A stretch of 64,000 bases of DNA from an archaeon. Its GTDB lineage: Archaea > Nanobdellota > Nanobdellia > Woesearchaeales > GW2011-AR9. This document shows, piece after piece, positions 3,050-35,868 of this stretch. The notes beneath the pieces were generated by a model. It was given only the letters and a program-made list of their open reading frames with translations, was not told the DNA's origin and did not search any database. The number at the start of each line of letters is the position of its first letter. Position 1 is the stretch's first letter. The translations under genes and the position numbers were made by a program. Location of the stretch: positions 621 to 64,620 of the forward strand of contig JAUYKZ010000001.1 of assembly GCA_030704845.1 (NCBI GenBank). The letters are read 5' to 3'.

Positions 3050-6000
3050 ATGAAAACGACAAAAGGAAGATGGATGCGAATATTTTCTTTACTAGTTATC
3101 ATTCTATTTGTAAATCTTCCAATTGTTTCCGCCCTTGAGATATCAAATGTAAGGGCGGATAGTATCACCGAAACAAGTGCAGTCGTTAACTGGGAAACAG
3201 ATAGTAACGCTGACTCTTTTGTGAATTATGGACAAAGTAAAGACAATTTGGTATCAATTGGTGACGCATCCCAATTAATGAGTCATGCTCTTCCATTATC
3301 TGGCTTATCTTCAGATACAACTTATTATTTCTCAGTTGAAAGTAATAGTTTTGTAAGCGATAATGGTGGCGACTTATATTCTTTCAAGACGGCTGCTCCA
3401 GATACTGAAGCACCTCAAATTACTGCTGTCATTCCTGAATTTATTCAAGGAAGTAGATTAGATATAACTGGAAATGTCGAAACTGGTTCTCAGGTAAGAC
3501 TTTTCGTTAATGGTATTTTCTTACAAACGGCAAGTTCAGTTGCAGGCAAATTTACATTTCAAGGTGTATTATTAAAAGCAGATCAAGAAAATATTATTTC
3601 TCTTGAAGCAACTGATCCAGCTGGCAATTCTATGTCATTATCTGGAACCGTGTTTGCTGATACTTCTGCTCCTAAAATTACTCTCCCAGTAATCCCTGAA
3701 TTTAGTGATAGTAATTCATTTCAGTTGAAAGCCTCTTTATCTGAGAATTCCATGATTGAGATATTTAACGGTGATAAATCGGTTTCAAAAACTGAAGGAA
3801 CGTTAATCGATGTTACGATCTCTTTACAAGAAGGAGAAAATAATATCAAAATAGTTGTTTCTGATAAAGCTGGTTGGACTGCTGAAGAAAATTTTACGAT
3901 ACTCTCCGATACGAAACCGCCAACGATCACTTTCGATTTAACTAAAGGCACAGAATATTATGAAGGAAGAGCCGAAACGGATGTAACTGGTAAAACTGAA
4001 GCTGGCGCTAGTGTTTATCTTTACGTGTTTAGATCTTTCGGTGATGAATATAAAGCAGATTTCAAAAGAGCTTATGCGAAAACTATCGCTGACGAAAATG
4101 GCGAATTTAAATTCAGTGAGGTAAGTTTTCCTCCGCCTCCTTTTACAAGTATAACTGAACTTGCTCCAAGAGAAGTTCCAGCAGGATTACAAGAAGTATT
4201 AATTTCTCCTCTCGGTCTTATCGGGAATGAACAACGGAAAGGGTATAAAGTTTATTTGGTTGCGGAAGACAAATCAGGTAAAACTGCTTACGCTCAAAAA
4301 CAAATTAACATCAATACTTGTTTCTCGGCTGCAAGTGATTTCATTATTGATGAACAGATTCAGTTCCATGCTCCATTTAGGTTAGATCCGTCTTTAATGG
4401 AAGAAGGAAGAGAAGCAATTCAAGCTGTGTTTAATTTAAGTTACCGCGGAGATGCAATTGCTCCAATTAATACGGCTACAAATCAACCACAGGAAGCGTT
4501 CAGGATTCAAAGCGTAACATTCCAGAAAGCATGTACTCAAGCTATGTTGGATGAAGACGAATTTAAGTACGGATGTCAATTGTTGCCATCTTCATTAAGA
4601 TATCAAGCAAATGGAGATAAATCTGCTTATTATGTCACAGCTAATCTTAATCGAGCTTTAGATTTTATAGATAAGGAAGATAACGTTTGGGATGATTTCC
4701 AAAAACGTGAATTAAAAATGCCGGTGAAAGTAATTGTTAATTACCAAGAACGTGATGCTCAAGGTGGTTGGGAGCAACAGAAAACTCAAACTTCTTGTTA
4801 CGATTTAGGATATTTTGTTGATGTCCCAATAGAAAGTGAAAATTTAATCCCTGACTTTTTAGCAGAAGAAGGAGTAGATGCGCTTAATTTTACTATTGAA
4901 CAAATTGAAAATGTTAAACCTTACTTAAAAACAGCAATGATTGTTTCTGGTGTAAGTTGTATCGGTTCATTCTTGGTAAAACTAATTGCAAGATTATATA
5001 GAAATTTCATGGCAAACTTTGAACCTTGGTTAACTAGGATAAAAGGGGAAGATGAAAGATGTCCAAATATAGCTGGTCAAAATAAATTATATCTCGATAG
5101 CACAATTCAGCAATGGCAGGATTTGAAAAATCATCCTGAAGCAAATGGAAAAAGTGGTATTCCTGATTTAGATGCTGAAAAAAATTCTCTTAGTAAAAGA
5201 TGTCCGCAAACAGCAAGTGCGTGGGAAGTTGAGACTTATATCGATTTAGCGTATAGATTTACTTGTGACAGATTCTTCTGTAGATCTGTTCCAGCTGCTT
5301 GGACATCTAAAGAAACTGATGAAAAAATTCAAGGTGTTATCGCTGAACAAACCATGTGTACAGCTACCACTACCTGTTCATTCCTTGAACCAGTTGAGAA
5401 TTGCCAAGAGAAGTTGAAAACAAGTGTAGCTAACACCGAAAGAGCAAGAATATTGGAACAGGAAGGAAAATCTTTCACTTGTTATCTTAACAGACAGAAC
5501 GGATTATATTACACTGTTGAAGGAGATCCTCTACAAGAAGAACGGTTCATCTGGAAATTAGTCCCTGAAGAAACAATTAATAGTATTGGAACATTATCAC
5601 AACCAAATCTTCTTGCTTACAAACCAGAAGGATCACAGAACTTCTGTATCGCAACTGATTTAAGTTGTTCTAGTGCATGTAAACGAAAGAGTGGATATCA
5701 AGCGGTAACGGATGGATATACTTTAGAAAAACAAGGAGATAAAGTTGTTGTTGCAGGAAACGGCGGAGCTTGTTACCGTGAAGATCCAAAGGGGGATAGT
5801 ACAGTTCTAAGGAATGCTGGCGAAAATACTCTTCGTGATGCTGGCGGAGATAAAGTTGCTTTCGGATATACTAACGATTGTTTCGTTCAAGATCAGCCTG
5901 AACAATTATATCAATGTGTTTGTGAACCATCGAAAGCACAAGCTGGAGTTTCATTGAAAGGAGCAAGGGAAGCAGTTCGTGAAGTGAATGGTCAGACTGA

Positions 6001-8389
6001 AGAATGGGTATTCCGTCAAGATAGAGTTTATGCTGAATCAAAAGCAACAGCAGGAACGCATTACTCTAAAGATAGATATTATAGTGGAAGAGATTTCAGT
6101 GGAGCATTCGGAACAAATTATGCTCTTGATGCATTCAAGACTGAAGATTTTAGTACGGCAAGAGTCGATCCACATAACCAATTACTTGGAACTTTCCAAA
6201 GTATGTGTCTTCCTGGAATTTATGCAAGATTACAATTATTGCAAAGCATTTTGATGGGACTTAGAAATTGTATCATTGAAGCAAAATATACTGGATTCCA
6301 TGATGCAGGTATGTGTAAAACATTATTCACTCAATATGTCTGTGGTTTAATTTACAAAACAATATCTTATGCGGCAAGTAGTTGTTCACCACTTTCCTTG
6401 AAAGATGTTGGTGAAGATGATCAATTAAGTGCTATCGAAGCAGCTTTAGGTGCCGGTTCGAAAGCAATTCCTGCAACTTTAGATTCATCAATCCAAGAAG
6501 TGAAATCAGATTATGGAAATTCTGCATTAGATCAATATTTTGCATCCGGCAGTCAAGGATTTGCTGAATCGTTATGTTTAGCTGCGTTCGGTTATGACTT
6601 CCCTCTGGGCATGGACTTTATTCAAGATGCTGCTTACGCTTTCCCGACGGCGACAAATGTAATATTCCCAATTGCTGAAAGAGAATTGGCTACATTTGAT
6701 CCGGTGAAAGGAAGCGCGGTGTTCAATTATAATTTAGGTGGTACGATTCTTCCAGGTTGTAAAATTCAAAGTTATAGGACATCATTGAAATGTATCGGTC
6801 CAAATGATTTAGGTAAAGCTGGTGTTGATTGTTCCCAACAAAGTTGTGATTGTTTACAATCAACGGGAGATGTAACTGCCTTTGAAACTCAGAAATCATA
6901 TGTAATCCAAGGTGGAACTGGCGTGGGTGGTATTACTAAAGGACAGATGGTTGATCTTCCAATTCCATCGCCACAAAAAGTAACTAGTCCATTCAGGTAT
7001 GATCACGTGGTACTTGAATTAACTTTAGCTCAAGGAGAAAGTCCAGATACATGTTTCGATGAACAATATAGAACCGGTAACGGCGGAATTTTCTATTTCC
7101 CAATTCAAGATACTTCTCCTCCATTCGCGGTATCATGTCATGTGAACCTGAATAATGGTAAATTTGAATGTCCACAAATCAGTGCATTCTTTGGTGGAGG
7201 ACAAAGTTACTTCGAATACCCATTCATGCGTTGTGCGGATGCAAAGACGGGAGATTTCGTATCTTGTGATCAACCAAATCTTTTCATTAACAATGATCCA
7301 CAGAGAGATCAGATTGTGATTAAACCTTACTTAAATCTAGGAAACGAGAAAGCTTGTTTAAGAATTGAAGATGAAAGAAATTTAATTCAGCCGAGAATTA
7401 TTCCTCTTCCGGATGGTCTGCAAGGTCAGTATTCGCCGGTAATCACGTTAGGTCCAGTTACTGAGAATATGGTTTCTGGTGGTAGCGCAGCAACAATCAC
7501 CAAGAATACTGTGTTAAGCGATTCTGGGTGTGGTGGATTCCAGAACGGTGATTTGAATGTAATTACTCGTTCAGAAAAATCTGTAGCTAATACTAATTTA
7601 GAATTTAAATATGAAAGAAATGTTGAAGGATTGTATAAACTGGAAATTGGAACAACGGGAGTAACGTTAGATCCTGCTAGTAATAATAACAGATTTTTAG
7701 TAAATCAAAATAATGTTTGGAAAGGTGAAAAACAATTCATGACATTCCAAGAAGCTAACGAAGCAATTTTCTCTTATGAAGGATTTAGGTTCAGCAATGT
7801 ACTCGGTCAACCTATACCTAAAGTTGGTTCTGGTGGAAGTTGTATTTATCAAGCTCAATTCCCCAGATCGAATGTTGGACAAACTCAAGGCGGATTAAGA
7901 GTTACTGCTAAATTACTTCAAGCAGTTGGAGATAATTGTTATGAAGCAACTCAATTAATACCTAAATCTGATCTTGGTGTAAATCTCCACACTGAAAATA
8001 TTAGAATCCAACTTGAACCGGTTGAAGTTACGGTTGGTAAAAATCTTGCAGAAGATTTCTTTAACAGGAATTATGAAATTGTTTTAAGTAAAGCGGAAGC
8101 TATCGCTAAAAGAAAATCAGGTTCTTTAGAAGATGCGGAAGCTCTTTATTATTGGGTGTTGAGTTATGTTGCTCAGAAAGATGGCACAACTAAATATAAG
8201 GAGAATATAATCAGTTTACTTGATTTATTCTTCAAACGGGAAAGTAATCAAGGTAAAAGTGATCCTTACACGGAAGATGTTGTGAAGACCGGGGAGTATC
8301 AAATTGTTGAAAAGAATTTATGTTGTGTTGCAAAGAAGATTGGTACTGATAACAACTATGGTGTCTGTGAAGGGGTAGATTGTAAATAA
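3050..8389 (+). CDS. Giant secreted Cys-rich surface protein (1779 aa) with an N-terminal FN3/purple-acid-phosphatase-N-like domain and Ig-like repeats
   Basis: Uninterrupted 5.3-kb ORF with a signal peptide (MRIFSLLVIILFVNLPIVSALE). The ISNVRADSITETSAVVNWETDSNADSFVNYGQSKDNL segment matches the FN3/PAP-N consensus, followed by repeated ~90-aa beta-rich segments (ITAVIPEF..., ITLPVIPEF...). The C-terminal 1200 aa are very Cys-rich with no transmembrane helix. Confidence 0.8.
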   Translation: MKTTKGRWMRIFSLLVIILFVNLPIVSALEISNVRADSITETSAVVNWETDSNADSFVNYGQSKDNLVSIGDASQLMSHALPLSGLSSDTTYYFSVESNSFVSDNGGDLYSFKTAAPDTEAPQITAVIPEFIQGSRLDITGNVETGSQVRLFVNGIFLQTASSVAGKFTFQGVLLKADQENIISLEATDPAGNSMSLSGTVFADTSAPKITLPVIPEFSDSNSFQLKASLSENSMIEIFNGDKSVSKTEGTLIDVTISLQEGENNIKIVVSDKAGWTAEENFTILSDTKPPTITFDLTKGTEYYEGRAETDVTGKTEAGASVYLYVFRSFGDEYKADFKRAYAKTIADENGEFKFSEVSFPPPPFTSITELAPREVPAGLQEVLISPLGLIGNEQRKGYKVYLVAEDKSGKTAYAQKQININTCFSAASDFIIDEQIQFHAPFRLDPSLMEEGREAIQAVFNLSYRGDAIAPINTATNQPQEAFRIQSVTFQKACTQAMLDEDEFKYGCQLLPSSLRYQANGDKSAYYVTANLNRALDFIDKEDNVWDDFQKRELKMPVKVIVNYQERDAQGGWEQQKTQTSCYDLGYFVDVPIESENLIPDFLAEEGVDALNFTIEQIENVKPYLKTAMIVSGVSCIGSFLVKLIARLYRNFMANFEPWLTRIKGEDERCPNIAGQNKLYLDSTIQQWQDLKNHPEANGKSGIPDLDAEKNSLSKRCPQTASAWEVETYIDLAYRFTCDRFFCRSVPAAWTSKETDEKIQGVIAEQTMCTATTTCSFLEPVENCQEKLKTSVANTERARILEQEGKSFTCYLNRQNGLYYTVEGDPLQEERFIWKLVPEETINSIGTLSQPNLLAYKPEGSQNFCIATDLSCSSACKRKSGYQAVTDGYTLEKQGDKVVVAGNGGACYREDPKGDSTVLRNAGENTLRDAGGDKVAFGYTNDCFVQDQPEQLYQCVCEPSKAQAGVSLKGAREAVREVNGQTEEWVFRQDRVYAESKATAGTHYSKDRYYSGRDFSGAFGTNYALDAFKTEDFSTARVDPHNQLLGTFQSMCLPGIYARLQLLQSILMGLRNCIIEAKYTGFHDAGMCKTLFTQYVCGLIYKTISYAASSCSPLSLKDVGEDDQLSAIEAALGAGSKAIPATLDSSIQEVKSDYGNSALDQYFASGSQGFAESLCLAAFGYDFPLGMDFIQDAAYAFPTATNVIFPIAERELATFDPVKGSAVFNYNLGGTILPGCKIQSYRTSLKCIGPNDLGKAGVDCSQQSCDCLQSTGDVTAFETQKSYVIQGGTGVGGITKGQMVDLPIPSPQKVTSPFRYDHVVLELTLAQGESPDTCFDEQYRTGNGGIFYFPIQDTSPPFAVSCHVNLNNGKFECPQISAFFGGGQSYFEYPFMRCADAKTGDFVSCDQPNLFINNDPQRDQIVIKPYLNLGNEKACLRIEDERNLIQPRIIPLPDGLQGQYSPVITLGPVTENMVSGGSAATITKNTVLSDSGCGGFQNGDLNVITRSEKSVANTNLEFKYERNVEGLYKLEIGTTGVTLDPASNNNRFLVNQNNVWKGEKQFMTFQEANEAIFSYEGFRFSNVLGQPIPKVGSGGSCIYQAQFPRSNVGQTQGGLRVTAKLLQAVGDNCYEATQLIPKSDLGVNLHTENIRIQLEPVEVTVGKNLAEDFFNRNYEIVLSKAEAIAKRKSGSLEDAEALYYWVLSYVAQKDGTTKYKENIISLLDLFFKRESNQGKSDPYTEDVVKTGEYQIVEKNLCCVAKKIGTDNNYGVCEGVDCK

Positions 8390-8390
8390 A

Positions 8391-8957
8391 ATGTTGAAAC
8401 AAAAAAAAGGCGGGCTTGTAATTCAAGTTTTAGTATTGATGGTTCTGGTAGTAATTAGCAGCAGCGTTTTATTATTCCTAATTAATAAAGGCGTGATTAC
8501 TGTTAAAGAATCTGGACAAACAGAACCAATCCTTCAAGCAAATTTTTTACCAATCGCTAGAACTGGAACGGTGGCTGTTAAAGAATTTGCTTTCTGTAGT
8601 GATGTTAACGAAGATTTTGAATGTATCGGTCAGCGTTCACTGTTCCAGAAAGGAGATAAAGTTCACTTTAAGTTTGTTGTTGAAACTAATCCGTATGGGG
8701 GAGATGTCATCATTTTTCAGAATTACCGTTTAATTAATCCTAATGGGGTTATAATCTTGGAAGCTGAAGATATGAATAATTATCAGTATGATGCAAGAAG
8801 CGATAAAACATTGGAAGAAATAGTGTTTAAAGATTATATTATCACGGAAGAGAATGATATTCCTGGAACTTATAGGTTTGAATTACTTGTGAGCAATCCA
8901 TTATTAGAAAAGGATATAACTGTTACGGAGGAGTTCACTCTTGCTGGAAATGAATAA
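8391..8957 (+). CDS. Hypothetical membrane-anchored protein (188 aa)
   Basis: Starts 2 nt after the giant-protein stop. N-terminal transmembrane helix (LVIQVLVLMVLVVISSSVLLFLI). Overlaps the next gene by 17 nt, which suggests translational coupling. Confidence 0.55.
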   Translation: MLKQKKGGLVIQVLVLMVLVVISSSVLLFLINKGVITVKESGQTEPILQANFLPIARTGTVAVKEFAFCSDVNEDFECIGQRSLFQKGDKVHFKFVVETNPYGGDVIIFQNYRLINPNGVIILEAEDMNNYQYDARSDKTLEEIVFKDYIITEENDIPGTYRFELLVSNPLLEKDITVTEEFTLAGNE

Positions 8958-10647
8958 AATTTATTGGAAGAGAACTTTAGTATTACTTCTCCTACTTTCA
9001 ATAACATTAAGCATATCTGTATTTGCTGCAACTAAATCCCCTGAGGGATCAACAGCTAAGAGTATCAGTTTAGCTAGCGGAACAACTTGTAATAGTATCA
9101 CCCGATGTAAACAGATTCATCAAGCTTGGTTGCAGGTGTATGACTCTTTGGGTTACAGCAGGCTAGTGTTTAATCCGTCTTTAGGGAAATGGGTTAGTTT
9201 TGAGAGTGTTTATCTTCCCCAATTAGAAGATGCTCCATCTAGCACGGAAATTACCAATGAAGCAGAATCTTCAGAAGCAGTTAATCTTAATGAGATTAGT
9301 GGCAGGTATGCTGTTTTTATTAATGCTGCTGCTGGACATTTTGGAATCCAGCCGGCTTTAATTGCTGTTTTTATTAAGTATGAATCCGGGGGAAATCTTA
9401 AACCTTCCCCTACGGGTTGTCAAGGATTGATGCAGGTTTGTAACTGGAATGCTAATTATAATGGGTTCACCTCTGAGAATCCAAATATAAAAATTAAGGA
9501 TGATGCTCTCGATCCAGAAGCTAACATTTATGTGGGAACATACATATTGTCCCAGAAATTCAAAAGTGTTAGCGGATGTAAAGAAGGTAGTGATAGAATT
9601 AAATGTGTAATTGCAGCTTACAATGCGGGGGAAGGGCTGATTAATTATGCTACCAAGGGTTTTGAGGGTGAAGCAACTTGGCAGCAAGTAATAACCATAC
9701 TTCAAAATGAAGAGTTTGTGAAGGGATTAAAAGCATATTCTGATGAAAGATTTTGGATTAATTCGAATGGAGTAAACCAAACTTGGACTGATTCAGTTTC
9801 ATGTCAAGGTTTTAAAGATAAGGTTACTAGAAGAGGATGCAAGATGTACAATTTACAGTTTTATGTGAATAAAATCTTTGCTTCTGTATATGGAGCTTCT
9901 CAAGAACAGACTTCTTCAAGTGATGAAACAATTGCTACGGCAAGTGGCGTCGGTAAGAAAGTCTTACTAATTGGAGACTCTCATACGGCAGGTTATTATG
10001 GGGAATTACTCCATAACTCTTTGGTTAATGTAAATTATGAAGTGAGAACTTATGGTTGTGGTGGAAAAGTTGCAACAGCCTTTGCTAACAACAGGGAGGT
10101 TAGTTGTAGTCTGTCTTACAAATGGATTGGTAATGAAAAAACCTTGCTAACAAAACTCACTCCTAATTTTTTCCAGACTGAAATTAATTCATTCAATCCA
10201 GATATCGTTGTAATCAGTCTTGGGACAAATTATTGGCTCAGAGAAAGTAGTATTGCTAATCCAGGAAGCGTACATTATGCTTCTGTAAATTCATTATTGG
10301 ATAGTGCTCTAGGAAAAACTTGTTATTGGGTTGGGGCACCAGTGTCAACTATTAAATTTGGAGATAGTAAATTGAATTATGATGGTACTTGTACCAAAAA
10401 CCATCCCAATGATTATGAAACTAGTTGTTCTCTGGTGAATATACCTGGAATAAATCGGGGAGATATATACGATTATAATTTAGTTAATACAAATCTAAGA
10501 AAACTAGTTGAAGATAAAGGATGTAACTTTATAGACCCAACGCAGATTGCTGGTTTAACGGAAGATAAATTAAGAGACAAGTTACATTTTAATAATGACG
10601 GTTATACTATCTGGGCAAACTACGTCTTCAAGAAGATAATCAAGTAA
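8941..10647 (+). CDS. Secreted lytic transglycosylase (SLT domain) fused to a C-terminal SGNH/GDSL-type hydrolase domain
   Basis: Signal peptide is present. The SLT motifs are YESGGNL...GCQGLMQV and AYNAGEG. The C-terminal half carries the GDSH block (LLIGDSHTAGYYG) and the distal block (HFNNDGYTIWANYV) characteristic of SGNH hydrolases. Confidence 0.75.
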   Translation: MLEMNKIYWKRTLVLLLLLSITLSISVFAATKSPEGSTAKSISLASGTTCNSITRCKQIHQAWLQVYDSLGYSRLVFNPSLGKWVSFESVYLPQLEDAPSSTEITNEAESSEAVNLNEISGRYAVFINAAAGHFGIQPALIAVFIKYESGGNLKPSPTGCQGLMQVCNWNANYNGFTSENPNIKIKDDALDPEANIYVGTYILSQKFKSVSGCKEGSDRIKCVIAAYNAGEGLINYATKGFEGEATWQQVITILQNEEFVKGLKAYSDERFWINSNGVNQTWTDSVSCQGFKDKVTRRGCKMYNLQFYVNKIFASVYGASQEQTSSSDETIATASGVGKKVLLIGDSHTAGYYGELLHNSLVNVNYEVRTYGCGGKVATAFANNREVSCSLSYKWIGNEKTLLTKLTPNFFQTEINSFNPDIVVISLGTNYWLRESSIANPGSVHYASVNSLLDSALGKTCYWVGAPVSTIKFGDSKLNYDGTCTKNHPNDYETSCSLVNIPGINRGDIYDYNLVNTNLRKLVEDKGCNFIDPTQIAGLTEDKLRDKLHFNNDGYTIWANYVFKKIIK

Positions 10648-10664
10648 ATTAAATCAATCAACAA

Positions 10665-14658: not shown

Positions 14659-14806
14659 GCCCCAGTGGCTCAGCGGTTAGAGCATTCGGCTGTTAACCGG
14701 AGGGTCGTCGGTTCAAAACAGATCTCCCGGATCTGGTAGAGGGATTCGCGGTCACTCGCGTTCCCGCTCATAAGATTTGGAGATTGGGAAAGTCCGACCT
14801 GGGGCG
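14659..14806 (+). tRNA. tRNA-Asn (anticodon GUU) with a ~74-nt intron in the T-loop
   Basis: Acceptor GCCCCAG/CUGGGGC, D-arm GCUC-AGCGGUUAG-AGC, anticodon stem-loop UUCGG-CUGUUAA-CCGGA, variable loop GGGUC, T-stem GUCGG...CCGAC. The T-loop (UUCAAAA...U) is interrupted by 14719-14792. The intron ends can pair (CAGAUCUCC with GGAGAUUG), which is BHB-like. Confidence 0.75.
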
Positions 14807-14915: not shown

Positions 14916-15662
14916 ATGCGCAAACTCTCCTTGGTAGCTCTGGTCTTAAAATTTGGTTTAGGTCTAGCGAATGCTACACCTCCGGCTTTAGACCTTCCGA
15001 TAGTTAGTATTATGGGCGATTCACTTTCGGTAAGAGCCACTTCAAAAGGGGGATATGCAACTTATCTGCAGGATTTATGTTCTGATTTAGAAATTGATAC
15101 TTACGGGATTGGCGGACAAAATACTCGGCAGATGGTTAATCGTTTTAAGAAAGACATTGTCGATAAAACTCTTGGCAGTTATAGGATGTATGATGATGTT
15201 ATAATCTTTGCTGGGATAAATGATATTGCTATGATAGATAATGATTATGTTAAAACCGGCAAGGTTTGGTCTGAAGAAAGAGTAGATGAACATACTCTGG
15301 GAATCATAGAAAGACTAGACTCTATGTATAAAGAAGCAAGAGATTCCGGAATGAGGGTTATTGCGGTAACAATCACTCCTTGGGGCGGATATAAGGGAAA
15401 AGTTACAAGATACGGACAATCTCACTGGTCAGAAAATAGTCAGAAAGCGATAGATGCAATAAACTTGTGGCTTCGCTCAAAACCTGAAAATGTAGATGTC
15501 GTGATTGATGCTTATGATGTTTTGGAAGATTCTAATCGTCCAGATGCATTAAAGAAAGAATTTACCGGAGACCGACTTCATCTCAGTTCAAAAGGTAATA
15601 AAGTTCTTGCTAATGGAATCTATAATGCTGCATATCAGACAATCTGTTCACCAGATAATTAG
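14916..15662 (+). CDS. Secreted SGNH/GDSL-family hydrolase (esterase/lipase-like)
   Basis: Signal peptide, GDS block (IMGDSLS), and the C-terminal DRLHLSSKGNKVLANGI block with the catalytic Asp/His arrangement. Confidence 0.7.
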   Translation: MRKLSLVALVLKFGLGLANATPPALDLPIVSIMGDSLSVRATSKGGYATYLQDLCSDLEIDTYGIGGQNTRQMVNRFKKDIVDKTLGSYRMYDDVIIFAGINDIAMIDNDYVKTGKVWSEERVDEHTLGIIERLDSMYKEARDSGMRVIAVTITPWGGYKGKVTRYGQSHWSENSQKAIDAINLWLRSKPENVDVVIDAYDVLEDSNRPDALKKEFTGDRLHLSSKGNKVLANGIYNAAYQTICSPDN

Positions 15663-16685: not shown

Positions 16686-17516
16686 ATGAACAAAGTTACT
16701 CAATTTTTCTCATTTCTTGGAAGAGGTCTCGCTATGGGCATTGCTGACGTAATTCCTGGCATATCTGGGGGAACTATTGCCTTCGTAACCGGAATTTACG
16801 ATCGTTTAATCTCCAGTCTTAGTTTATTGAAATTTTCATTAATACCTCTTATCTTTAAAGGGAAATTTAAAGAATTTTCAAAACAGATTGATTTTGCTCT
16901 TTTCATTCCTTTGGGGATTGGAATTCTTACTTCAATATTTTTTTTCTCTGGCATAATCACTTCGCTTCTTATTAATCATCCTTCCATAACTTATTCCTTC
17001 TTTTTCGGATTAATCTTATCATCTGCGATTGTTTTATTGCACAAAATTAAGCGAATTAATGTTGAAAATGTAATCTTTTTAATTCTTGGTTTTTTGTTTG
17101 CTTACAGCATTTCTAGTGTACATATTCTAGAAATAACTAATTCTTTACCGATTATCTTTTTCTCGGGAGCCATAGCAATCTCTGCAATGTTACTTCCTGG
17201 GATCTCTGGTGCATTTATTTTACTATTGCTTAACCAATACCAATTCATCTTAAATTCGGTGCAAGACCTTAATTTCGCAGTGTTAATAGTTTTTGCTCTG
17301 GGAGCAATAACTGGTTTACTTGCCTTTTCCAGATTTATCCATTATCTCTTAACAAGATACAAATCTATCGCTCTAGCTGCTTTAGTCGGGGTAATGCTTG
17401 GGGCACTGAAATCTCCTTTACAACAGATAACTTTTGGAACAAATACTGGTTATTTGGTTCTTGCAACCTTGTTAGGTGTGCTAATCGTTTTTATTGTTCA
17501 GAAATTTGATAATTGA
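16686..17516 (+). CDS. DUF368-family membrane protein (putative polyprenyl-phosphate transporter)
   Basis: The GISGGTIAFVTGIYDRLI motif is repeated later as GISGAFILLLL. Two-fold internal symmetry and 7-8 transmembrane helices are typical of DUF368. Confidence 0.7.
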   Translation: MNKVTQFFSFLGRGLAMGIADVIPGISGGTIAFVTGIYDRLISSLSLLKFSLIPLIFKGKFKEFSKQIDFALFIPLGIGILTSIFFFSGIITSLLINHPSITYSFFFGLILSSAIVLLHKIKRINVENVIFLILGFLFAYSISSVHILEITNSLPIIFFSGAIAISAMLLPGISGAFILLLLNQYQFILNSVQDLNFAVLIVFALGAITGLLAFSRFIHYLLTRYKSIALAALVGVMLGALKSPLQQITFGTNTGYLVLATLLGVLIVFIVQKFDN

Positions 17517-18685: not shown

Positions 18686-20557
18686 ATGACAAACGAACAA
18701 AAAGTAACAGGAGCAACAATTGGTATCGATTTAGGTACTACATTCTCTGCAATGGCAGTACTTGAAGGTGGAAAATCTACAATTATTACAAATTCTGAGG
18801 GAACAAGAACAACCCCAAGCGTAGTTCATATTAAAGATGGGGAAGTTATCGTCGGACAAATTGCCCGAAACCAGGCAATTATCGATCCAACTCATACCAT
18901 TAGATCTATTAAAAGAAAAATTGGAACTTCAGAGAAGATTAGGATAGATGATAAGGATTATACTCCTGAACAAATATCTGCAATGATTCTTCAGAAATTG
19001 AAACGGGATGCGGAAGCATATCTCGGTCAACCGGTAAAAAATGCGGTAGTTACCGTTCCAGCTTATTTCAATGATTCTCAACGTCAAGCAACAAAGAATG
19101 CTGGTGAAATTGCCGGTTTAAATGTTTTAAGAATTATTAACGAACCAACTGCTGCATCGTTAGCATATGGTTTAGATAAACAAGAAACAGAACATACTAT
19201 CTTAGTATTTGACTTTGGTGGCGGTACTTTTGACGTATCTATCCTTGAACTAGGAGATGGTATCTTTGAAGTAAAATCCACTAGCGGAGATAACCTGCTT
19301 GGTGGAGATGATGTTGATACCTTAATCATGGATTGGATTATGGGAAATTTCAAAAATTCAACCGGTATTGATTTAAGAAATGATCCTACAGCTATTCAAA
19401 GATTAAAAGAAGCTTCAGAGAAAGCTAAGATTGAATTATCTTCAAAGGCAAAAGTAGAGATAAGTATTCCATTTATCACTGCAGATCAGAATGGTCCAAA
19501 ACATATCAAAGAAGAATTGTCTAAAGCAAAATTCGAAGAATTAATTTCAGACATCTTAAGACGATTAGAAGGACCTGTTAAACAAGCATTGAAAGATGCA
19601 AGTTTAACTCCAGATAAACTTAATAAAGTAATTTTTGTCGGCGGTTCAACAAGAATCCCGGCTGTACAAGATTTAGTTAGAAAAATTACTGGCAAGGAAG
19701 GAGATAAATCTGTAAATCCGGATGAAGCTGTTGCAGTTGGTGCGGCAATTCAAGCGGGAGTTATCTCTGGGGATATCAAAGATGTTCTCTTACTTGACGT
19801 AACTCCATTAAGTTTTGGAATTGAAACTCTTGGGGGAGTATTCACAAAATTGATTGAAAGAAATACTACGATTCCGACAAAGAAATCTCAAGTATTCTCA
19901 ACAGCTGCCGATAATCAGCAAGCGGTAACAATCAGAGTTGCGCAAGGTGAACGTTCAATGTTTAATGATAACAAACACCTTGGTCAGTTCGATCTAATGG
20001 GAATCCCACCCGCTCCGCGAGGTGTACCTCAGATTGAAGTAGCTTTCGACATTGACGCTAACGGGATACTTAATGTAAGCGCAAAAGATATGGGTACTGG
20101 TAAAGAACAAAAAATCAAGATTACTGGTTCAAGTGCATTAAGTAAAGATGAAGTTGAAAAGATGCGACAAGATGCAGAACAAAATGCTGCTGACGATGAA
20201 AAAAAGAAAGCTAAAGTTGAAGCAGAAAATAATGCGGATGCAGTAGTTTATCAATCAAGAAAAGTCTTGGAAGAATTTAAAGATAAAGTTAACGAATCAA
20301 CCAAGACCAAAATTGAAGCAGCAATTGAAGCTGTTGAAAATTCCCGTAAAGATGGGAATGCTGAAGTGATTAACAAAAAAATTGAAGAATTAAACAAACT
20401 TATGCAGGAAATCGGTACTCAAATGTATCAAGAAGCTGCAGCACAACAACCTGAGCAAACTTCAGGAGAAGAAACGACTGGAAGTAATGCAAAAGATGAA
20501 AACATTGTTGATGCAGAGTTTAAAGAGAAAAAAGAGAAAAAAGAAGAGAAAGCTTAG
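18686..20557 (+). CDS. dnaK: Molecular chaperone DnaK (Hsp70)
   Basis: [26 protein letters not shown] and the substrate-binding domain motifs; 623 aa. Confidence 0.95.
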
Positions 20558-20591
20558 AGCTTTCTCTTAAAACCAATTCGGAGGTACGAAA

Positions 20592-21020
20592 ATGGTAGAA
20601 AAATATAGAAGATTAGTAGATGGTTTAGAGAATAATCTAGACGAAGGGTTACAACATGGTGACCAAGGCGGAGTTCCACAATTTGATTATGGGGGAAGGT
20701 TACCTCAATATGGCGGTAGCGGAAGATATTCTAGTTCAAATTCATTAGATGGGAGATTGGGATTAGCTGGTTATGTGCACAAGATGTTAGATAATGACGA
20801 TTATTTCTCTGCATTAACTGCTGTTGATGCTTCGAATGGTTTAAACGAACCAGGCGTTTCTAATCGCATACTTTATGCAGCTTTAGCAATTTACGGTGCA
20901 ACAAGATTAGGTGATTTAGATAAAGGGTGTAAGGCATACAATCTAATGGAAACTCTCGTTGCTTACTGTGTTAAAAACGCGGGTGATCTATTAAAGGGGT
21001 CTGAACAATCAGATGAGTAA
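20592..21020 (+). CDS. Hypothetical Gly/Ser-rich protein inserted between dnaK and dnaJ (142 aa)
   Basis: ORF with an RBS-like GGAGGT 8 nt upstream. Its stop overlaps the dnaJ start by 8 nt. No known motif. Confidence 0.45.
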   Translation: MVEKYRRLVDGLENNLDEGLQHGDQGGVPQFDYGGRLPQYGGSGRYSSSNSLDGRLGLAGYVHKMLDNDDYFSALTAVDASNGLNEPGVSNRILYAALAIYGATRLGDLDKGCKAYNLMETLVAYCVKNAGDLLKGSEQSDE

Positions 21021-22122
21021 GAATTACTATGAACTCCTTGGTGTTGATAAAAAATCAACCAAGGAAGAAATAAAGAAAGCCTACAAAAAGTTGGCGATGA
21101 AATATCATCCAGATAGAGCGCCAACTGATAAAAAGGCTGAGTATGAAGAAAAGTTTAAAGAAATAAATGAAGCAGCTTCAGTTCTAGGTGACGAGAAAAA
21201 ACGTCAACAGTATGATCAATTTGGTTCTGCAGGTCCACAAAGTGGCGGTTTCCAACAAGGTTACGATTTCTCAGATATCATGTCGCAATTTCGTTCTGGT
21301 TCTTTCGGAGATTTTGGCGACGTCTTTGATCAAATTTTTGGTGGCGGAGGAAGAAGAAGTAATACTCGAGCACGAAGAGGTTCAGATTTATTATACGAAA
21401 CTGAAATAACTTTAGAAGATGCAGCTAAAGGTGCTTCTAAAACAATTCCGCTAAATAAATTGGAATATTGTTCTGATTGTCAGGGGAAAGGAGCTCATAA
21501 ATTTGAAAGTTGTCATCATTGTCATGGTTCAGGTCAGGTGAAACAAACTCAAAGAACTCCATTCGGAATTTTCCAACAAACTGGTCCATGTCCATATTGT
21601 CACAGTAAAGGTGAATTGCCACAAGATTCATGTTCTAGTTGTAACGGTGACGGTTTAGTCAGAAAAAGAAAAGAGATTGAAGTTTCAATCCCCGCAGGTA
21701 TTCAAACGGGGATGCGTTTAAGGGTAACTCGGGAAGGAGAAGTTGGAGAGAATGGTGGGCCTTCAGGAGATTTATATGTTCAAGTTTCCGTTAGTGAACA
21801 TCGTTATTTTAAGAGGAGAAATGATGATTTACATATCACTGTCCCTATATCATATTCACAAGCTGTAATTGGTGACGAAATTGAAGTGCCAACAATTAAA
21901 GGGACTGCCGAATTAAAAATTCCTGCAGGCACGGATTCAGAAACAATCTTTAGAATGAAAGATAAGGGAATGCCTCATTTACAAAGTTCTGGTCATGGCG
22001 ACCAGATGGTTAAGGTAAAAATAGAAGTTCCTAAAAAGATAAACAAGAAACAGAAAGATTTGATTTCTCAATTGAAAGAAGAAAAACCAATCAAGAATTT
22101 TTTAAAGAAAATATTTGGATAA
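21013..22122 (+). CDS. dnaJ: Co-chaperone DnaJ (Hsp40)
   Basis: J-domain (YYELLGV...KYHPDR), a G/F-rich linker and four CxxCxGxG zinc-finger repeats. Confidence 0.95.
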   Translation: MSKNYYELLGVDKKSTKEEIKKAYKKLAMKYHPDRAPTDKKAEYEEKFKEINEAASVLGDEKKRQQYDQFGSAGPQSGGFQQGYDFSDIMSQFRSGSFGDFGDVFDQIFGGGGRRSNTRARRGSDLLYETEITLEDAAKGASKTIPLNKLEYCSDCQGKGAHKFESCHHCHGSGQVKQTQRTPFGIFQQTGPCPYCHSKGELPQDSCSSCNGDGLVRKRKEIEVSIPAGIQTGMRLRVTREGEVGENGGPSGDLYVQVSVSEHRYFKRRNDDLHITVPISYSQAVIGDEIEVPTIKGTAELKIPAGTDSETIFRMKDKGMPHLQSSGHGDQMVKVKIEVPKKINKKQKDLISQLKEEKPIKNFLKKIFG

Positions 22123-29881: not shown

Positions 29882-30484
29882 ATGAAAAATAAATTAATGA
29901 ATCCTAAATTAACTAATAAATCAGTTTACCTTATTATCCTATTCTCCTTAATATCCTTGTTATTCTTAACTCTGTTATCCTATAAAATTGTTCTTTTTTT
30001 AACACCTTTCACGGACTCACAGCAAAAAACAATTGATTTTCTTTATGATCATCTTAATGACGATAACCAATTAGATTTACAATACGCTTCTGATGAGTAT
30101 TCTCATCTTCTTGATGTAAAAAGAATAATGAACATAGCAAATGTTATTTTTTATCTCTCTTTGCTTGCTTTCACTTCAATTATCACTCTTACTAAAAGAG
30201 ACCCCGATCTTCAAAGAAAAATGTTTAAGACTGCCGGAATAACAACCATTTCCGTGTTATTATTACTTGTTATCCTCTCTTTATTTGCTTTTAATGGTCT
30301 TTTTAATTCATTTCATCAGATTTTCTTCCCGCAAGGAAATTGGATATTTGCGAATGATTCTCTTCTTATTACAACCTTTCCGACCTCGTTTTTCATAAAA
30401 ATGGCAAGAAATATCTTTATTCTTTCATTAACAAGCGGAATCTTTTTATTCTCTTTATCTTTACTAAAGAAAAATGTTCGTTAA
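29882..30484 (+). CDS. Hypothetical integral membrane protein (4 transmembrane helices)
   Basis: Four hydrophobic helices. Confidence 0.45.
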   Translation: MKNKLMNPKLTNKSVYLIILFSLISLLFLTLLSYKIVLFLTPFTDSQQKTIDFLYDHLNDDNQLDLQYASDEYSHLLDVKRIMNIANVIFYLSLLAFTSIITLTKRDPDLQRKMFKTAGITTISVLLLLVILSLFAFNGLFNSFHQIFFPQGNWIFANDSLLITTFPTSFFIKMARNIFILSLTSGIFLFSLSLLKKNVR

Positions 30485-32222: not shown

Positions 32223-32786
32223 TTATTGAATAACAACTGTAAATTGTTGAGTGTTACCGTACTGGTTATCATCGGTACAATCTTGTCTTACTGGTTGTAA
32301 AGTACATACCTTTGCTTTAAAAATATATTGACCGCGAGGCGCATTCTCTGGAACTGAAACCAGGATTGGTTCTTTTCTATTATCGGCCGGTTCCACGTTT
32401 AATTTTTGATCATTATATAATATCCATTCATCTAAAACTCCTTGCGGGAATTTTTTAACAATTCCATCATCATCGATATAATTTACTTCATCTATGGCGA
32501 TAAAGTAATCCTGTTTTTCTTCACCAATGTTAAGAATTCCAATCCCAAATGTGTGCGATTCTCCTGGTAAAACATTTGCGGTATGTAATGGCAAAGCAAC
32601 TCTTTTTCCTTGATCAGTTAGTAAATGTTCTAATTCTTCTTCAGTTCTTTGATCCAGATGTCCTTGAATTTCTGTGGCTCCACCGATGAATTGGTACAAT
32701 AGATTGACTCCTAAACCAAGGATAACTAAAGAAATGATTACAACTACCAGAATGTTAACCGATAAACCAATCGATCCTCTTTTCAT
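32223..32786 (-). CDS. Archaeal type-IV-pilin-like protein (class III signal peptide)
   Basis: MKRG/SIGLSVNILVVVIISLVILGL matches the prepilin peptidase recognition pattern (basic residues-G then a hydrophobic helix). The start is placed at the MKRGS Met. Confidence 0.6.
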   Translation of the reverse strand: MKRGSIGLSVNILVVVIISLVILGLGVNLLYQFIGGATEIQGHLDQRTEEELEHLLTDQGKRVALPLHTANVLPGESHTFGIGILNIGEEKQDYFIAIDEVNYIDDDGIVKKFPQGVLDEWILYNDQKLNVEPADNRKEPILVSVPENAPRGQYIFKAKVCTLQPVRQDCTDDNQYGNTQQFTVVIQ

Positions 32787-32857
32787 ATGGCTATTGTAAA
32801 CACAGAAACTATATAAAATCTGCTTTTTCCACAAATGTATTCGTTGGTGGTGTAAAG

Positions 32858-34389: not shown

Positions 34390-34962
34390 TTATGAAGTTT
34401 TAATGAAGAATGTTCTTTCATCGAATACGGTCTCACCGGATGCTTCTACTTTCATTACCAATACTTTGTAAAGGTAAGTACCAGTTTTATCTGGAGCAGT
34501 AATCGTTACTGGAATCACTCTAGTTTCACCAGGAGAGAAACTTAATTCTGAATTATCCCAGATTACCTTTGTTGAAAATGGAACACCACCTTTTGTTGTA
34601 AAGCTTTCATCTGATTCAGATTCTATAGATTCAAATTGATCTCCTGCTTTAATTTGGAATGCAACTTTTAATACTAATTCACTATCTGCAGTATTTTTAA
34701 TACCGATTGCCTGAACATCATCAGATCCGGTTTCAAGTCTTAATTCGGTTGCAGGAAAACTTAATTTTTTATTACCAGTTCTCAAATCATCTAAGATTTG
34801 CTGGCTAATCTGTTCTTGTACTGCAGTTGTAGTACTACCAATACCCGCAAATTGTTCACGAACAAAACCTAAGCCTAAGCCTAAAACAACAAAAGCAATA
34901 ACAACTATGATAATCGTTTGAATAGAAAGTTCAAGGGATCCTCTATTATTCATTACATCCAC
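34390..34962 (-). CDS. Archaeal type-IV-pilin-like protein (class III signal peptide)
   Basis: MDVMNNRG/SLELSIQTIIIVVIAFVVLGLGL fits the class III signal pattern. Confidence 0.6.
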   Translation of the reverse strand: MDVMNNRGSLELSIQTIIIVVIAFVVLGLGLGFVREQFAGIGSTTTAVQEQISQQILDDLRTGNKKLSFPATELRLETGSDDVQAIGIKNTADSELVLKVAFQIKAGDQFESIESESDESFTTKGGVPFSTKVIWDNSELSFSPGETRVIPVTITAPDKTGTYLYKVLVMKVEASGETVFDERTFFIKTS

Positions 34963-35022: not shown

Positions 35023-35868
35023 TTATAAAAAATAGAGACCAATGTGGTACATTTTAACTATTAAGAGTACAATAAATCCTAATAAGAAGCTTGGTACAAA
35101 AGGAACACCTTCTTTAATAAGAACGCTAGTAAGTTTCTTTTCTCGATAAAATTTCTGTAATTTTTGCAGATGTCTTTTTTCGATAGTTCTCTTTGTAACA
35201 ATGATTTCTTTACCTACCACGACTTCTTCAGCTAACCAATCGCCTTCTGTAACATCTGAAATCTTTTTCCGTTGCAGGAAACAACTATCTTCAACTGCAT
35301 TTACAAATAAAAACAAATAGAACAAAGCTGGAGGAAAAAACATTAATGGCCAAATTGTGGGGTAAAAGAATGTAAATATTAAAGTCGCTACAAACAGAAG
35401 CATGACTATACTATGAACAATCCATTGCTGTTTAATTTTTTCTTTCCATTCTTTAACAAATGTTTCTCTTTTTTTAATAGCCAGGAATCCCATCCAAAGT
35501 ACTCCGTAAATCGCGCCAAGGAATAAAAGACCGATGAAAAATATAACCAAATTGAAACTTTCAAGACTTAAAGGGAGGTTAATTCCAATAGCCGCGCCCA
35601 TGCCCATTAATAATTTACTATCTCCACCGCCCCATTGATTAGAATAATAAAACAGAACGGCAATTAAAAAACAAAGAATGAACCCAAGAAAACCACTTAC
35701 AATAATATGCCAATCAACAATTACCGAAAAAATTCCCCTTATCCCAAGCACAGCGAAAAGAAAACCGTAATTTAACCAATCTGGGATTTCCCTAGTTTTA
35801 AGGTCGCTATATGAGGATAATAGCAAAACTAGAATGGTAATCGTGATTATTATAGTCTCAAAAAGCAT
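35023..35868 (-). CDS. Prepilin/preflagellin peptidase (A24 family, PibD/FlaK-like)
   Basis: Polytopic membrane protein with a first catalytic Asp in SDLKTREIPD and a second in WGGGDSKLL. Confidence 0.7.
   Translation of the reverse strand: MLFETIIITITILVLLLSSYSDLKTREIPDWLNYGFLFAVLGIRGIFSVIVDWHIIVSGFLGFILCFLIAVLFYYSNQWGGGDSKLLMGMGAAIGINLPLSLESFNLVIFFIGLLFLGAIYGVLWMGFLAIKKRETFVKEWKEKIKQQWIVHSIVMLLFVATLIFTFFYPTIWPLMFFPPALFYLFLFVNAVEDSCFLQRKKISDVTEGDWLAEEVVVGKEIIVTKRTIEKRHLQKLQKFYREKKLTSVLIKEGVPFVPSFLLGFIVLLIVKMYHIGLYFL

Follow-up and report, generated by a model that had tools for sequence, protein, structure and literature searches.

A predicted secreted fusion of lytic transglycosylase and SGNH esterase modules at the variable end of a conserved surface-gene cluster of Woesearchaeales

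What might an archaeon do with an enzyme built from two domains that typically belong to bacteria? The question arises from a gene in a 64,000-nucleotide stretch of contig JAUYKZ010000001.1 (assembly GCA_030704845.1; Woesearchaeales, GW2011-AR9), hereafter the window, in which a preliminary description had recognized an SLT lytic transglycosylase fused to an SGNH hydrolase and had interpreted the product as a weapon against bacterial walls. The reading frame (8,941 to 10,647; the genes, modules and codons of the locus all lie on the forward strand) is real: it encodes 568 aa from a TTG at 8,941 to a stop codon at 10,645 to 10,647, and its product is matched at 100% identity by an NCBI protein (P0001, 'transglycosylase SLT domain-containing protein [archaeon]'). 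NCBI places the start three codons further on, at ATG 8,950 (565 aa); given that a GGAGGAG sequence (8,927 to 8,933) lies 7 nt ahead of the TTG, either start is possible. Pfam places both domains on this one chain (SLT at aa 127-247 and Lipase_GDSL_2 at aa 344-556), with their catalytic residues intact. The N-terminal hydrophobic leader (8,941 to 9,027; …LVLLLLLSITLSISVFA/A), read by eye as a Sec-type signal peptide and modeled by AF2 as a single helix over aa 3-22, suggests that the protein is probably secreted. It contains 14 cysteines, shows no recognizable anchor beyond the leader, and yielded no cell-wall-binding domain in the Pfam scan.

The archaeal nature of the carrier is borne out by its gene content. 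The window encodes GatE with a GAD insert, a three-domain ATP-dependent DNA ligase, PAC2, TruD, a prepilin peptidase of archaeal type (Peptidase_A24 and Arc_PepC_II; 35,023 to 35,868) and an SRP54 that is 80-83% identical to those of named Woesearchaeota/Nanoarchaeota MAGs; it also contains an intron-bearing tRNA (two tRNAs were found by Rfam and none by ARAGORN). No murein synthesis genes were detected among the window ORFs scanned. The tetranucleotide profile of the fusion gene, a test of contamination, is mildly atypical for the contig (3rd percentile, r=0.85 vs a mean of 0.93), yet its GC (0.361) and GC3 (0.267) are host-like and it lies in conserved archaeal synteny, with the same gene position recurring in at least eight independent assemblies (NCBI, ENA, JGI and Logan). 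Contamination is thus not the explanation of the gene.

The first catalytic module (9,283 to 9,888) is a lytic transglycosylase of the GH23/SLT family 1, including a conserved Cys-rich C-terminal extension, and is clearly detected by Pfam (PF01464, E=4.5e-15, 55.7 bits vs a cut-off of 21.3). All the canonical motifs that had been read from the sequence are in place, namely YES (147-149), GLMQV (162-166) and AYNAGEG (226-232). The predicted catalytic acid/base, E148 (codon 9,382 to 9,384, checked in the DNA), aligns with Glu478 of Slt70 and is invariant in the family alignments, as are the E, S, G and L of the ES, GLMQ and AYNAG motifs in the family alignment A3. Sequence searches against solved structures recover MltC (9vi7, E=6.7e-6) and Slt70 (E=3.9e-4). 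In the full-length AF2 model the region of about aa 120-310 has a pLDDT above 90, and the module is predicted to assume a lysozyme-like α-helical fold; the best Foldseek matches are MltF, MltC, MltE and Slt (probability 1.0, with a target TM-score of up to 0.67 for MltE), and goose-type lysozymes are also present among the matches. Upstream of it lies a further conserved unit, here termed the pre-SLT module (9,082 to 9,225; C..I[D/H]..W … W..F[D/E].VY), which was delineated by MAFFT alignment of the modules and modeled with a pLDDT of 60-69. Throughout the family it keeps its place ahead of the glycosidase module, and it can be present where SLT is absent: positions 6-77 of our HMM match alone in 11 other proteins.

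The second catalytic module (9,955 to 10,644) belongs to a rare DUF459/PatB-like subtype of the SGNH (GDSL_2) esterases. Its Pfam match is barely over the cut-off of 32.9 bits in the whole protein (PF13472, E=8e-8, 33.4 bits) and reaches 37.1 bits in a scan of the isolated module. The characteristic motifs are GDSH (345-348), GTNY (428-431) and DKLH (546-549). At least 90% conservation across an alignment of 83 subfamily members (A2) is seen for the block I nucleophile S347 of GDSH (codon 9,979 to 9,981, checked), the block II oxyanion-hole glycine G375 (10,063 to 10,065), the block III oxyanion-hole asparagine N430 of GTN (10,228 to 10,230) and H549. The latter forms block V together with D546 (D546-K-L-H549, catalytic Asp/His; 10,576 to 10,587), which aligns with the DGIH of PatB; most members have Asp at the position of D546, but P0002 and P0005 have Gly. 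The SGNH domain that the preliminary description had bracketed between GDSHTAG and DGYTIW is accordingly present with these residues intact, and DGYTIW (553-558) is real, but it forms the end of block V, with D546 and H549, the catalytic residues, lying just upstream. When modeled alone with the 83-sequence alignment, the module attains a pLDDT of 87 and a pTM of 0.85; in the full-length model, built from a shallow alignment, this half has a pLDDT of only 26-45. An insertion of ~35 aa with two cysteines (10,342 to 10,455; pLDDT 55-62) is seen by MAFFT in the window protein only.

The same description had labeled this domain Ape-type. The Ser/His/Asp triad of Ape1 is indeed present, and Foldseek matches the module with probability 1.0 to many SGNH esterases, acetylesterases and acyltransferases, Ape1 and PatB among them; the label itself is not supported, for generic esterases (TesA, CE3, sialate O-acetylesterase and 1yzf) score at least as high as these two, and ~120 residues of Ape1 are missing. 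Ape1 ranks 19th in the Foldseek search, with a target TM-score of 0.37-0.39 for its 349-356-residue chains, and the ~230-aa module has the ~35-aa loop as its sole insertion. In profile comparisons with solved structures the subfamily matches PatB (2e-8) and Ape1 (4k3u, 5.2e-8), with 1yzf, TesA and PatB scoring equal to or above Ape1. The Pfam family most often matched in the subfamily is DUF459 (64 of the 83 members at E<0.01), and the window module itself scores 20.8 bits against it (PF04311), under the cut-off of 27.2. The subtype is rare, with 171 representatives at E<=1e-3 among 1.84 billion. Judged by its sequence, the module belongs to a small subfamily of its own, apparently outside the Ape1 family proper. 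Given that it is not demonstrably Ape-type, we infer its substrate, most probably the 6-O-acetyl group of MurNAc, from its fusion to the SLT module. A second GDSL gene in the window (14,916 to 15,662) is not of the same subtype, as it gave no match to the subfamily HMM.

The fusion is not an isolated event. The SGNH subtype occurs together with SLT in P0002, P0003, P0005, P0010, P0011, P0016, P0018-P0022, P0024, P0026, P0027, P0029, P0093, P0129 and P0160, usually in the order SGNH then SLT. The reverse order is seen in the window protein and in P0093, a fused relative of 2377 aa, which rules out the window protein as the sole bearer of this arrangement. Given that independent rearrangements keep the pair together, the two activities are likely to be functionally coupled. 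To judge from the searched collections, the repeated fusion of this rare SGNH type to SLT, mostly in the order opposite to that of the window gene, appears to be new; no protein of the phage collection carries it, and a bacterial contig (L007) encodes a member of the SGNH subtype that stands alone. Other relatives combine the SLT or pre-SLT module with Amidase_2 (P0009), a CE4 deacetylase (P0160 and P0055), 3D (P0028), a SleB-like Hydrolase_2 (P0035) or a weak M23 domain (P0008), and these partners support murein as the target of the family. Domains that are not clearly murein-linked (Metallophos, EEP and FGE-sulfatase-like) are found in further relatives.

Examination of the gene neighborhood suggests a setting at the cell surface. 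The enzyme gene appears to be the last member of a conserved and previously undescribed four-gene cluster, comprising genes for a pilin-like protein of ~680 aa, a surface protein of ~1750 aa, a second pilin-like protein of ~185 aa and the enzyme. In the window the first of these, g683 (946 to 2,997; 683 aa), has a predicted class III (type IV pilin-like) N-terminus, [KR][GA]/Q[VI]T[LI]F…, recognized by eye in the alignment and by a regular expression; its orthologs are 45-50% identical, and it has neither a Pfam match nor a PDB sequence match. The second (3,050 to 8,389) encodes a Cys-rich 1779-aa protein, 89% identical to its counterpart in L001 and 37-46% identical to those in L004 and L012-L014, for which Pfam finds only fn3/Ig-like domains at the N-terminus and the PDB gives no sequence match. 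The third, g188 (8,391 to 8,957; 188 aa), again has a pilin-like N-terminus; in every locus examined an ortholog immediately precedes the enzyme gene, and in the window the 3' end of g188 runs 8-17 nt into the enzyme gene (ATG or TTG start, respectively). The class III-like motif is conserved in the orthologs of g683 and g188, and the home-made regular expression retrieves only four window ORFs. No TFF ATPase or platform gene was found within the cluster. A profile scan of genome contigs with a 4-sequence alignment recovered four archaeal loci. The order giant gene, ~185-aa gene, enzyme holds in all loci that are long enough (L001-L006, L009-L014 and the P0160 contig), with the ~680-aa gene also present in L004, L012, L013, L014 and the P0160 contig and PAC2 in L004, L013, L014 and the P0160 contig, and it is retained across relatives that are only 35-50% identical. 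In L017 the giant protein itself bears SLT-SGNH and is encoded downstream of a g683 homolog.

Within this conserved frame the end of the cluster is variable. Comparison by blastn with the close relatives L001 and L008 delineates a cassette (8,438 to 10,662), including g188, in which DNA similarity to L001 collapses. The flanks are 81-85% identical to L001 at the DNA level (in protein 89% for the giant, 83% for Fpg and 77% for bPH); inside the cassette protein identity falls to 31% for g188, 47% for SLT and 35% for SGNH, and the order of SLT and SGNH is swapped. A third architecture (P0008) is carried by L008, which comes from the same sample as L001 and has downstream flanks 93% identical to it; window positions 8,685 to 9,214, covering the pre-SLT module, are 75% identical to L008 in nucleotides, and the remainder of the gene differs. 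The architectures encountered comprise SLT and SGNH in both orders, CE4+SGNH+SLT, GDSL+SLT+amidase, and SLT with further, weakly M23-like domains. Thus, quite distinct murein-hydrolase architectures replace one another in near-identical strains, which appears to be a new observation.

In light of these contextual connections we propose, as the more probable interpretation, that the protein is an exported, disulfide-rich, bifunctional murein-degrading enzyme, which acts as the terminal, exchangeable 'cargo' of the surface cluster and opens bacterial walls locally. The SGNH module (Ser347/His549/Asp546, with Gly375 and Asn430 forming the oxyanion hole) would remove acyl groups bound as esters, most probably 6-O-acetyl groups on MurNAc, and deacylation would provide the free C6 hydroxyl required by the adjacent family-1 lytic transglycosylase (Glu148), which would then cut the MurNAc-β-1,4-GlcNAc bond to give 1,6-anhydro-MurNAc. 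With both activities on one chain, the protein could be a single-polypeptide counterpart of the bacterial Ape1-LtgA complex. It may locally open the wall of contacted bacteria for attachment, feeding or killing, and the replacement of cassettes from strain to strain might reflect differences between target walls. The coupling of esterase and transglycosylase that the preliminary description invoked is established: lytic transglycosylases need a free C6-OH on MurNAc, Ape acts before them, and LtgA forms a complex with Ape1 in which each stimulates the other (PMC1199599, PMC7083599). As for the supposed weapon, the murein target finds support in the partner domains of the relatives, but a weapon is only one of several readings, beside the breaching of a host wall for episymbiosis and scavenging. 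We know of no bacterial host of any Woesearchaeon.

The same enzymology could instead serve nutrition, with a free secreted enzyme digesting murein necromass for the uptake of amino sugars and peptides, involving neither attack on cells nor a link to the neighboring genes. The lack of a recognizable anchor beyond the leader and of a Pfam cell-wall-binding domain would fit this role, as would the portrayal of DPANN archaea, in passages of two earlier studies, as predicted scavengers with reduced genomes (PMC8204110, PMC9723730). However, we regard it as rather unlikely, given that the order with the pilin-like and giant surface genes is strictly kept across divergent relatives, that g188 and the enzyme gene are coupled via overlapping stop and start, that L017 fuses the enzyme to the giant protein, and that near-identical strains swap the cassette, a behavior more typical of conflict or recognition genes than of bulk polymer digestion.

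Less probable still is a target other than murein, with the SGNH module acting as a lipase, a phospholipase or an esterase of capsular, teichoic or archaeal glycans, and the GH23 module as a chitinase or a lysozyme on another β-1,4 GlcNAc polymer. GH23 includes chitinases, goose-type lysozymes occur among the fold matches of the SLT module, no murein-specific enzyme stands out in the fold and profile searches with the SGNH module, and the Metallophos, EEP and FGE-sulfatase-like domains of certain relatives point the same way. Against this, the family-1 transglycosylase motifs are intact, the top folds are MltF, MltC, MltE and Slt rather than lysozymes, and in relatives the partners of these modules include Amidase_2, 3D, SleB-like and CE4, all of them domains specific to murein or associated with it. 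Furthermore, pseudomurein is not expected to be a substrate of lytic transglycosylases because its talosaminuronic acid lacks the C6-OH.

The linkage to pilin-like genes and the prepilin peptidase of the window might also bring to mind a 'specialized' transglycosylase, like VirB1, FlgJ or EtgA, which would serve the archaeon in assembling a pilus or surface apparatus across the wall that it builds itself. This is very improbable, in that archaea are not, to our knowledge, makers of murein, the scanned window ORFs include no genes for its synthesis, and housekeeping enzymes are not expected to swap between near-identical strains. Finally, almost no weight can be given to the view that the gene is misassembled or mis-binned bacterial DNA, or a very recent transfer without a role in the archaeon: the typically bacterial domains, the low-normal tetranucleotide correlation and the stand-alone relative on L007 are outweighed by the host-like composition, the archaeal genes on both sides within one contig, the recurrence of the gene position in independent assemblies and the distance of the nearest SLT cores from bacteria or phages (identity of only 37-39% across ~115 aa), which implies that any transfer was ancient.

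Beyond the favored interpretation of an exported, wall-opening cargo, one may entertain, more tentatively, a pilus-like or giant-adhesin contact apparatus with an exchangeable 'warhead' at its end, for which esterase, transglycosylase, amidase, deacetylase, peptidase and other modules are attached through the ~60-aa pre-SLT adaptor and swapped by recombination to match the walls of hosts or prey. If true, this would represent an archaeal analog of polymorphic toxin and phage tail-lysin systems, and genomic evidence of cross-domain episymbiosis or predation of DPANN archaea on bacteria. Woesearchaeota rank high among DPANN groups in abundance and diversity, and the locus gives a handle on whether they live on bacteria. 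Its enzyme is small and expressible, the specificity of both predicted activities is measurable on O-acetylated and plain murein and on different wall chemotypes, and its natural allelic series could be matched to co-occurring bacteria. Single-chain esterase-transglycosylases opening O-acetylated, lysozyme-resistant walls could also be of antibacterial interest.

Several known systems resemble parts of this locus. One is the Ape1-LtgA pair of Neisseria, which likewise combines an SGNH esterase with a family-1 lytic transglycosylase; the window module retains the full catalytic set of Ser/His/Asp, Gly and Asn. The pair differs in consisting of two proteins rather than one polypeptide, in the ~350-residue Ape1 chains (~350-390 aa for the Ape1 architecture) with an extra domain, inserted into the SGNH core, that the window module lacks, and in acting on the producer's own wall, whereas the window enzyme, which has no patA/patB context, would act on a foreign one. 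Blocks III-V of the structures of PatB (peptidoglycan O-acetyltransferase B) and DUF459 proteins (PDB 7tjb, 7trr, 8tlb and 8gr2) align with the window module, including DGIH, and stand-alone members of the SGNH subtype of ~220 aa exist in bacteria, as on L007. PatB has PatA (MBOAT) as its partner, and no MBOAT or AT3 domain was found among the scanned window ORFs; given that no acetyl donor would be available outside the cell, only hydrolysis seems plausible for the window module.

In archaea, extracellular murein transglycosylases of Woesearchaeota and Pacearchaeota aimed at bacteria have already been proposed, in passages that describe fam00969 (Castelle et al. 2021, PMC8204110) and GH23 genes (Vigneron et al. 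2022, PMC9723730), as proteins that would bind or degrade bacterial walls. They are like the window gene in lineage, SLT/GH23 domain and predicted extracellular location. Going by its description, fam00969 comprises proteins that reach ~3000 aa including the transglycosylase domain, a size and layout matched by P0093 (2377 aa), whereas here a separate 568-aa gene lies beside that of the 1779-aa protein. Those passages mention no SGNH partner, pilin-like neighbors, permutation of domain order or replacement of cassettes between strains. Bacteria-killing peptidoglycan hydrolases of archaea (Strock et al. 2025, PMC12352652) and the GH25 lysozyme that Aciduliprofundum acquired horizontally (Metcalf et al. 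2014) are likewise secreted against a polymer that the archaeon does not make, through catalytic families different from those of the window enzyme. The survey of Strock et al., whose main text does not mention SGNH/GDSL, demanded a Pfam cell-wall-binding domain (PMC12352652), and given that the window protein has none, the present family would be missed by it; surveys of this design thus pass over a whole family of archaeal murein hydrolases. Lastly, among the virion transglycosylases of SPbeta-like phages (YomI and tape-measure proteins) none has an SGNH or pre-SLT module, and the resemblance is confined to the SLT core, the closest in the phage collection being from Bacillus SPbeta-like phages (37-39% identity over aa 117-233, or 21-25% of the query). 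What these and other 'specialized' transglycosylases, by which macromolecular machines cross walls, share with the locus is the concept of a lytic transglycosylase carried on a large surface or tail structure and opening a foreign wall locally.

The ORF at 8941-10647 (+), which the preliminary description had read as a lytic transglycosylase joined to an SGNH esterase, is confirmed and spans 568 aa when counted from its TTG, with GGAGGAG 7 nt upstream of that codon; the NCBI model starts at an in-frame ATG at 8950, giving a protein of 565 aa recorded as 'MAG: transglycosylase SLT domain-containing protein [archaeon]', its contig being 64,684 bp long. Pfam searches recover both domains on the one chain: SLT at aa 127-247 (E=4.5e-15) and Lipase_GDSL_2 at aa 344-556 (E=8e-8), the latter scoring barely over the gathering score and emerging more clearly when the module is scanned alone. 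In the suggested alignment to Slt70, carried out with phmmer against the PDB, the catalytic Glu478 pairs with E148, and the ES, GLMQ and AYNAG motifs are kept across the family alignments. The catalytic residues of the esterase are likewise intact, S347, G375, N430 and H549 being at least 90% conserved in an alignment of the 83-member subfamily. All of the motifs quoted earlier are present, but DGYTIW proves to be the tail of block V and not the catalytic pair, which is D546/H549 in DKLH; this Asp, three residues upstream of the catalytic His, is replaced by Gly in two relatives. AlphaFold models the SLT module with a pLDDT >90, and Foldseek places the model nearest MltF, MltC, MltE and Slt, with goose lysozymes ranking behind. 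The SGNH module reaches a pLDDT of 87 and a pTM of 0.85 with a deep alignment; a shallow alignment left it unmodelled.

The further suggestion that the esterase is of the Ape type is not clearly supported. A PDB profile search matches PatB (2e-8), Ape1 (5e-8) and a DUF459/CJ0610C structure (2e-6), with comparable values for 1yzf and TesA, and Foldseek returns generic esterases, CE3 enzymes, OafA, Ape1 (19th) and PatB (38th), all in a narrow TM range. Since neither profile nor fold searches single out Ape1 over generic SGNH enzymes, and the additional domain of Ape1 has no counterpart here, we do not file the module under the Ape family. DUF459 is the Pfam family matched by most members of the subfamily (64 of 83), the window enzyme itself falling below its cut-off. 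A stand-alone member of this subtype lies in one clearly bacterial contig, and the SGNH module is therefore probably of bacterial origin. The window codes for a second, stand-alone SGNH esterase with a hydrophobic leader (14916-15662 (+); Lipase_GDSL_2, E=8e-14), found in the same place in locus L008, which is of a different subtype and gives no match to the HMM of the fused-module subfamily.

Relatives of the enzyme are few: a word-indexed search of 5.8 billion proteins found 15, and exhaustive phmmer against 1.84 billion representatives yielded just 171 matches to the SGNH module at E<=1e-3, of which 20 also passed E<=1e-10. About 18 proteins are matched by the home-made HMMs of both modules, nearly all with SGNH first and SLT last; the order is reversed in the window enzyme and in P0093, a protein of locus L017. 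The permutation is evident in BLAST comparisons with the relative P0002, residues 255-549 of which align with 21-316 of the window enzyme (47% identity) and residues 49-235 with 341-567 (35% identity). Retention of the pair across independent rearrangements speaks for a joint requirement of both activities. A pre-SLT motif of about 60 aa (C..ID..W…W..FD.VY) always stands ahead of the glycosidase module and occurs also in proteins devoid of SLT. In locus L012 (9067-10648) the gene is apparently split into a 315-aa SGNH ORF and a 172-aa SLT ORF, which could mean that the reading frame has shifted, that the gene is a pseudogene or that the assembly is faulty. The partner domains of relatives include murein-directed or murein-associated types, namely Amidase_2, CE4 polysaccharide deacetylase, 3D, SleB-like Hydrolase_2, DUF2272 and a weak M23, along with Metallophos, EEP and FGE-sulfatase-like domains that have no obvious link to murein. 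Lytic transglycosylases are known to require a free C6-OH, with Ape acting before them, and in the complex of LtgA with Ape1 each enzyme stimulates the other (PMC1199599, PMC7083599). Based on the fusion, the murein-directed partner domains and this established biochemistry, we propose that the SGNH module de-O-acetylates MurNAc.

The enzyme is encoded by the last of four tightly packed genes on the same strand, preceded by those for a 683-aa protein (g683, 946-2997), a Cys-rich giant surface protein of 1779 aa with an fn3/Ig-like N-terminus (3050-8389) and a 188-aa protein (g188, 8391-8957), whose stop is overlapped by the enzyme start by 8-17 nt. For these three, neither Pfam nor the PDB offers a match that would account for their function. 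The order is kept at 35-50% protein identity in loci L004, L009, L011, L012, L013 and L014 and in the contig of the homolog P0160, usually with PAC2 ahead; L012 and L013 bear the label 'uncultured Methanosarcinales archaeon', yet their synteny matches that of Woesearchaeota loci. The proteins of about 680 aa share the N-terminus [KR][GA]-Q-[VI]-T-[LI]-F-I-I-[LI]-G, which leads into a hydrophobic helix, and those of about 185 aa share KG-VTELLVMLI…; judged by eye and with a simple regular expression, which selects just four ORFs in the window, the N-termini of g683 and g188 resemble class III (type IV pilin-like) signal peptides. At 35023-35868 (-) lies the gene for an archaeal prepilin peptidase (Peptidase_A24 + Arc_PepC_II). 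Near it is a 203-aa ORF with a pilin-like N-terminus (32223-32834 (-); KRG|SIGLSVNILVVV…), and the ORFs beside it at 34390-34962, 36012-36584 and 36592-37254 have no Pfam matches. Downstream of a g683 homolog in L017, P0093 (2053-9186; 2377 aa) ends in SLT followed by SGNH and corresponds, in fused form, to the giant and enzyme genes that are separate in the window, although it resembles the giant protein of the window very weakly, at E=1.6e-4 across 50 aa.

Comparison with L001, from a close relative in which the giant protein is 89%, Fpg 83% and bPH 77% identical, reveals an exchanged cassette made up of the g188 and enzyme genes. The DNA is 85% identical up to 8438 and 81-84% identical from 10662 onward, and between these points a single 300-bp stretch within the SLT domain aligns (70%); across this region g188 is 31% identical and the domain order of the enzyme is opposite. 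Locus L008, from the same metagenome as L001 (ERZ27254763) and sharing 93% identity with L001 in its downstream flank, has a third allele, P0008 (809 aa), which has the leader and pre-SLT module of the window enzyme (75% nt identity over 8685-9214), after which come an SLT of a different kind, bearing a Cys-rich insertion, and additional domains. One locus accommodates three enzyme architectures. Because the enzyme has diverged no more than the giant protein among distant relatives, this pattern reflects replacement by recombination and not merely fast point evolution. In L001 a HaeIII-type restriction enzyme and a cytosine methyltransferase (6189-8149) are inserted between the cassette and the bPH_2 gene; this pair is absent from the window and L008.

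The reading with most support is that the gene encodes an exported esterase-transglycosylase which acts on the murein of bacteria, has a genetic link to a surface or pilus-like apparatus and has diversified from strain to strain. Within this reading we infer export, the substrates, the sequence in which the modules act, the physical link to the neighbouring products and the bacterial target. Less probably, the same enzyme might instead scavenge wall debris or, less probably still, act on non-murein substrates; a self-directed role in assembly is improbable. Contamination as the source of the gene is excluded, because the same gene position recurs in independent NCBI, ENA, JGI and Logan assemblies.

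This recurrence of the locus, together with gene content and SRP54 identity, bears out the archaeal host. Besides the archaeal prepilin peptidase, the window codes for a GatE that carries its GAD insert, an ATP-dependent DNA ligase of three domains, PAC2, TruD, an archaeal-type TGT and an SRP54 that shares 80-83% identity with its counterparts in numerous MAGs bearing the names Candidatus Woesearchaeota, Nanoarchaeota or Nanoarchaeia. GC stays level near 0.35, and the enzyme gene is host-like in GC (0.361) and GC3 (0.267), its tetranucleotide profile being somewhat atypical (r=0.85, 3rd percentile among same-size windows). Rfam finds two tRNAs, at 38450-38551 (+) and 14664-14725 (+), the one of 102 nt probably containing an intron; ARAGORN finds none. 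Bacterial-type genes are also seen, for a DUF368/VCA0040-like polyprenyl-phosphate translocase (16686-17516), a Lit-like lipoprotein transacylase (29882-30484), AsnA (42289-43380) and, within 18686-22122, DnaK (18686-20557) and DnaJ (21013-22122); a DUF368 gene also lies near the four-gene cluster in the P0160 contig. Elsewhere, 52466-53485 (+) encodes a GH43-like protein (weak Pfam matches) whose leader is of the lipoprotein type, and 57270-58094 (-) a protein with a Bro-N domain, which is often met in viruses and mobile elements.

In the literature searched, which is no proof of absence, we found neither the recurrent, permutable pairing of SLT with a rare PatB/DUF459-like SGNH module, nor the conserved cluster of four genes, pilin-like ones among them, nor strain-level cassette replacement at the enzyme locus. 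Haloarchaeal murein hydrolases have been shown experimentally to kill bacteria (PMC12352652); a Pfam wall-binding domain, which the window enzyme does not have, was a condition for inclusion in that survey, and the main text of the survey makes no mention of SGNH or GDSL. Extracellular murein transglycosylases of Woesearchaeota/Pacearchaeota, with a suggested use against bacteria, are already described (PMC8204110, PMC9723730), and P0093 resembles the 'large extracellular LT proteins' described by Castelle et al. (PMC8204110).
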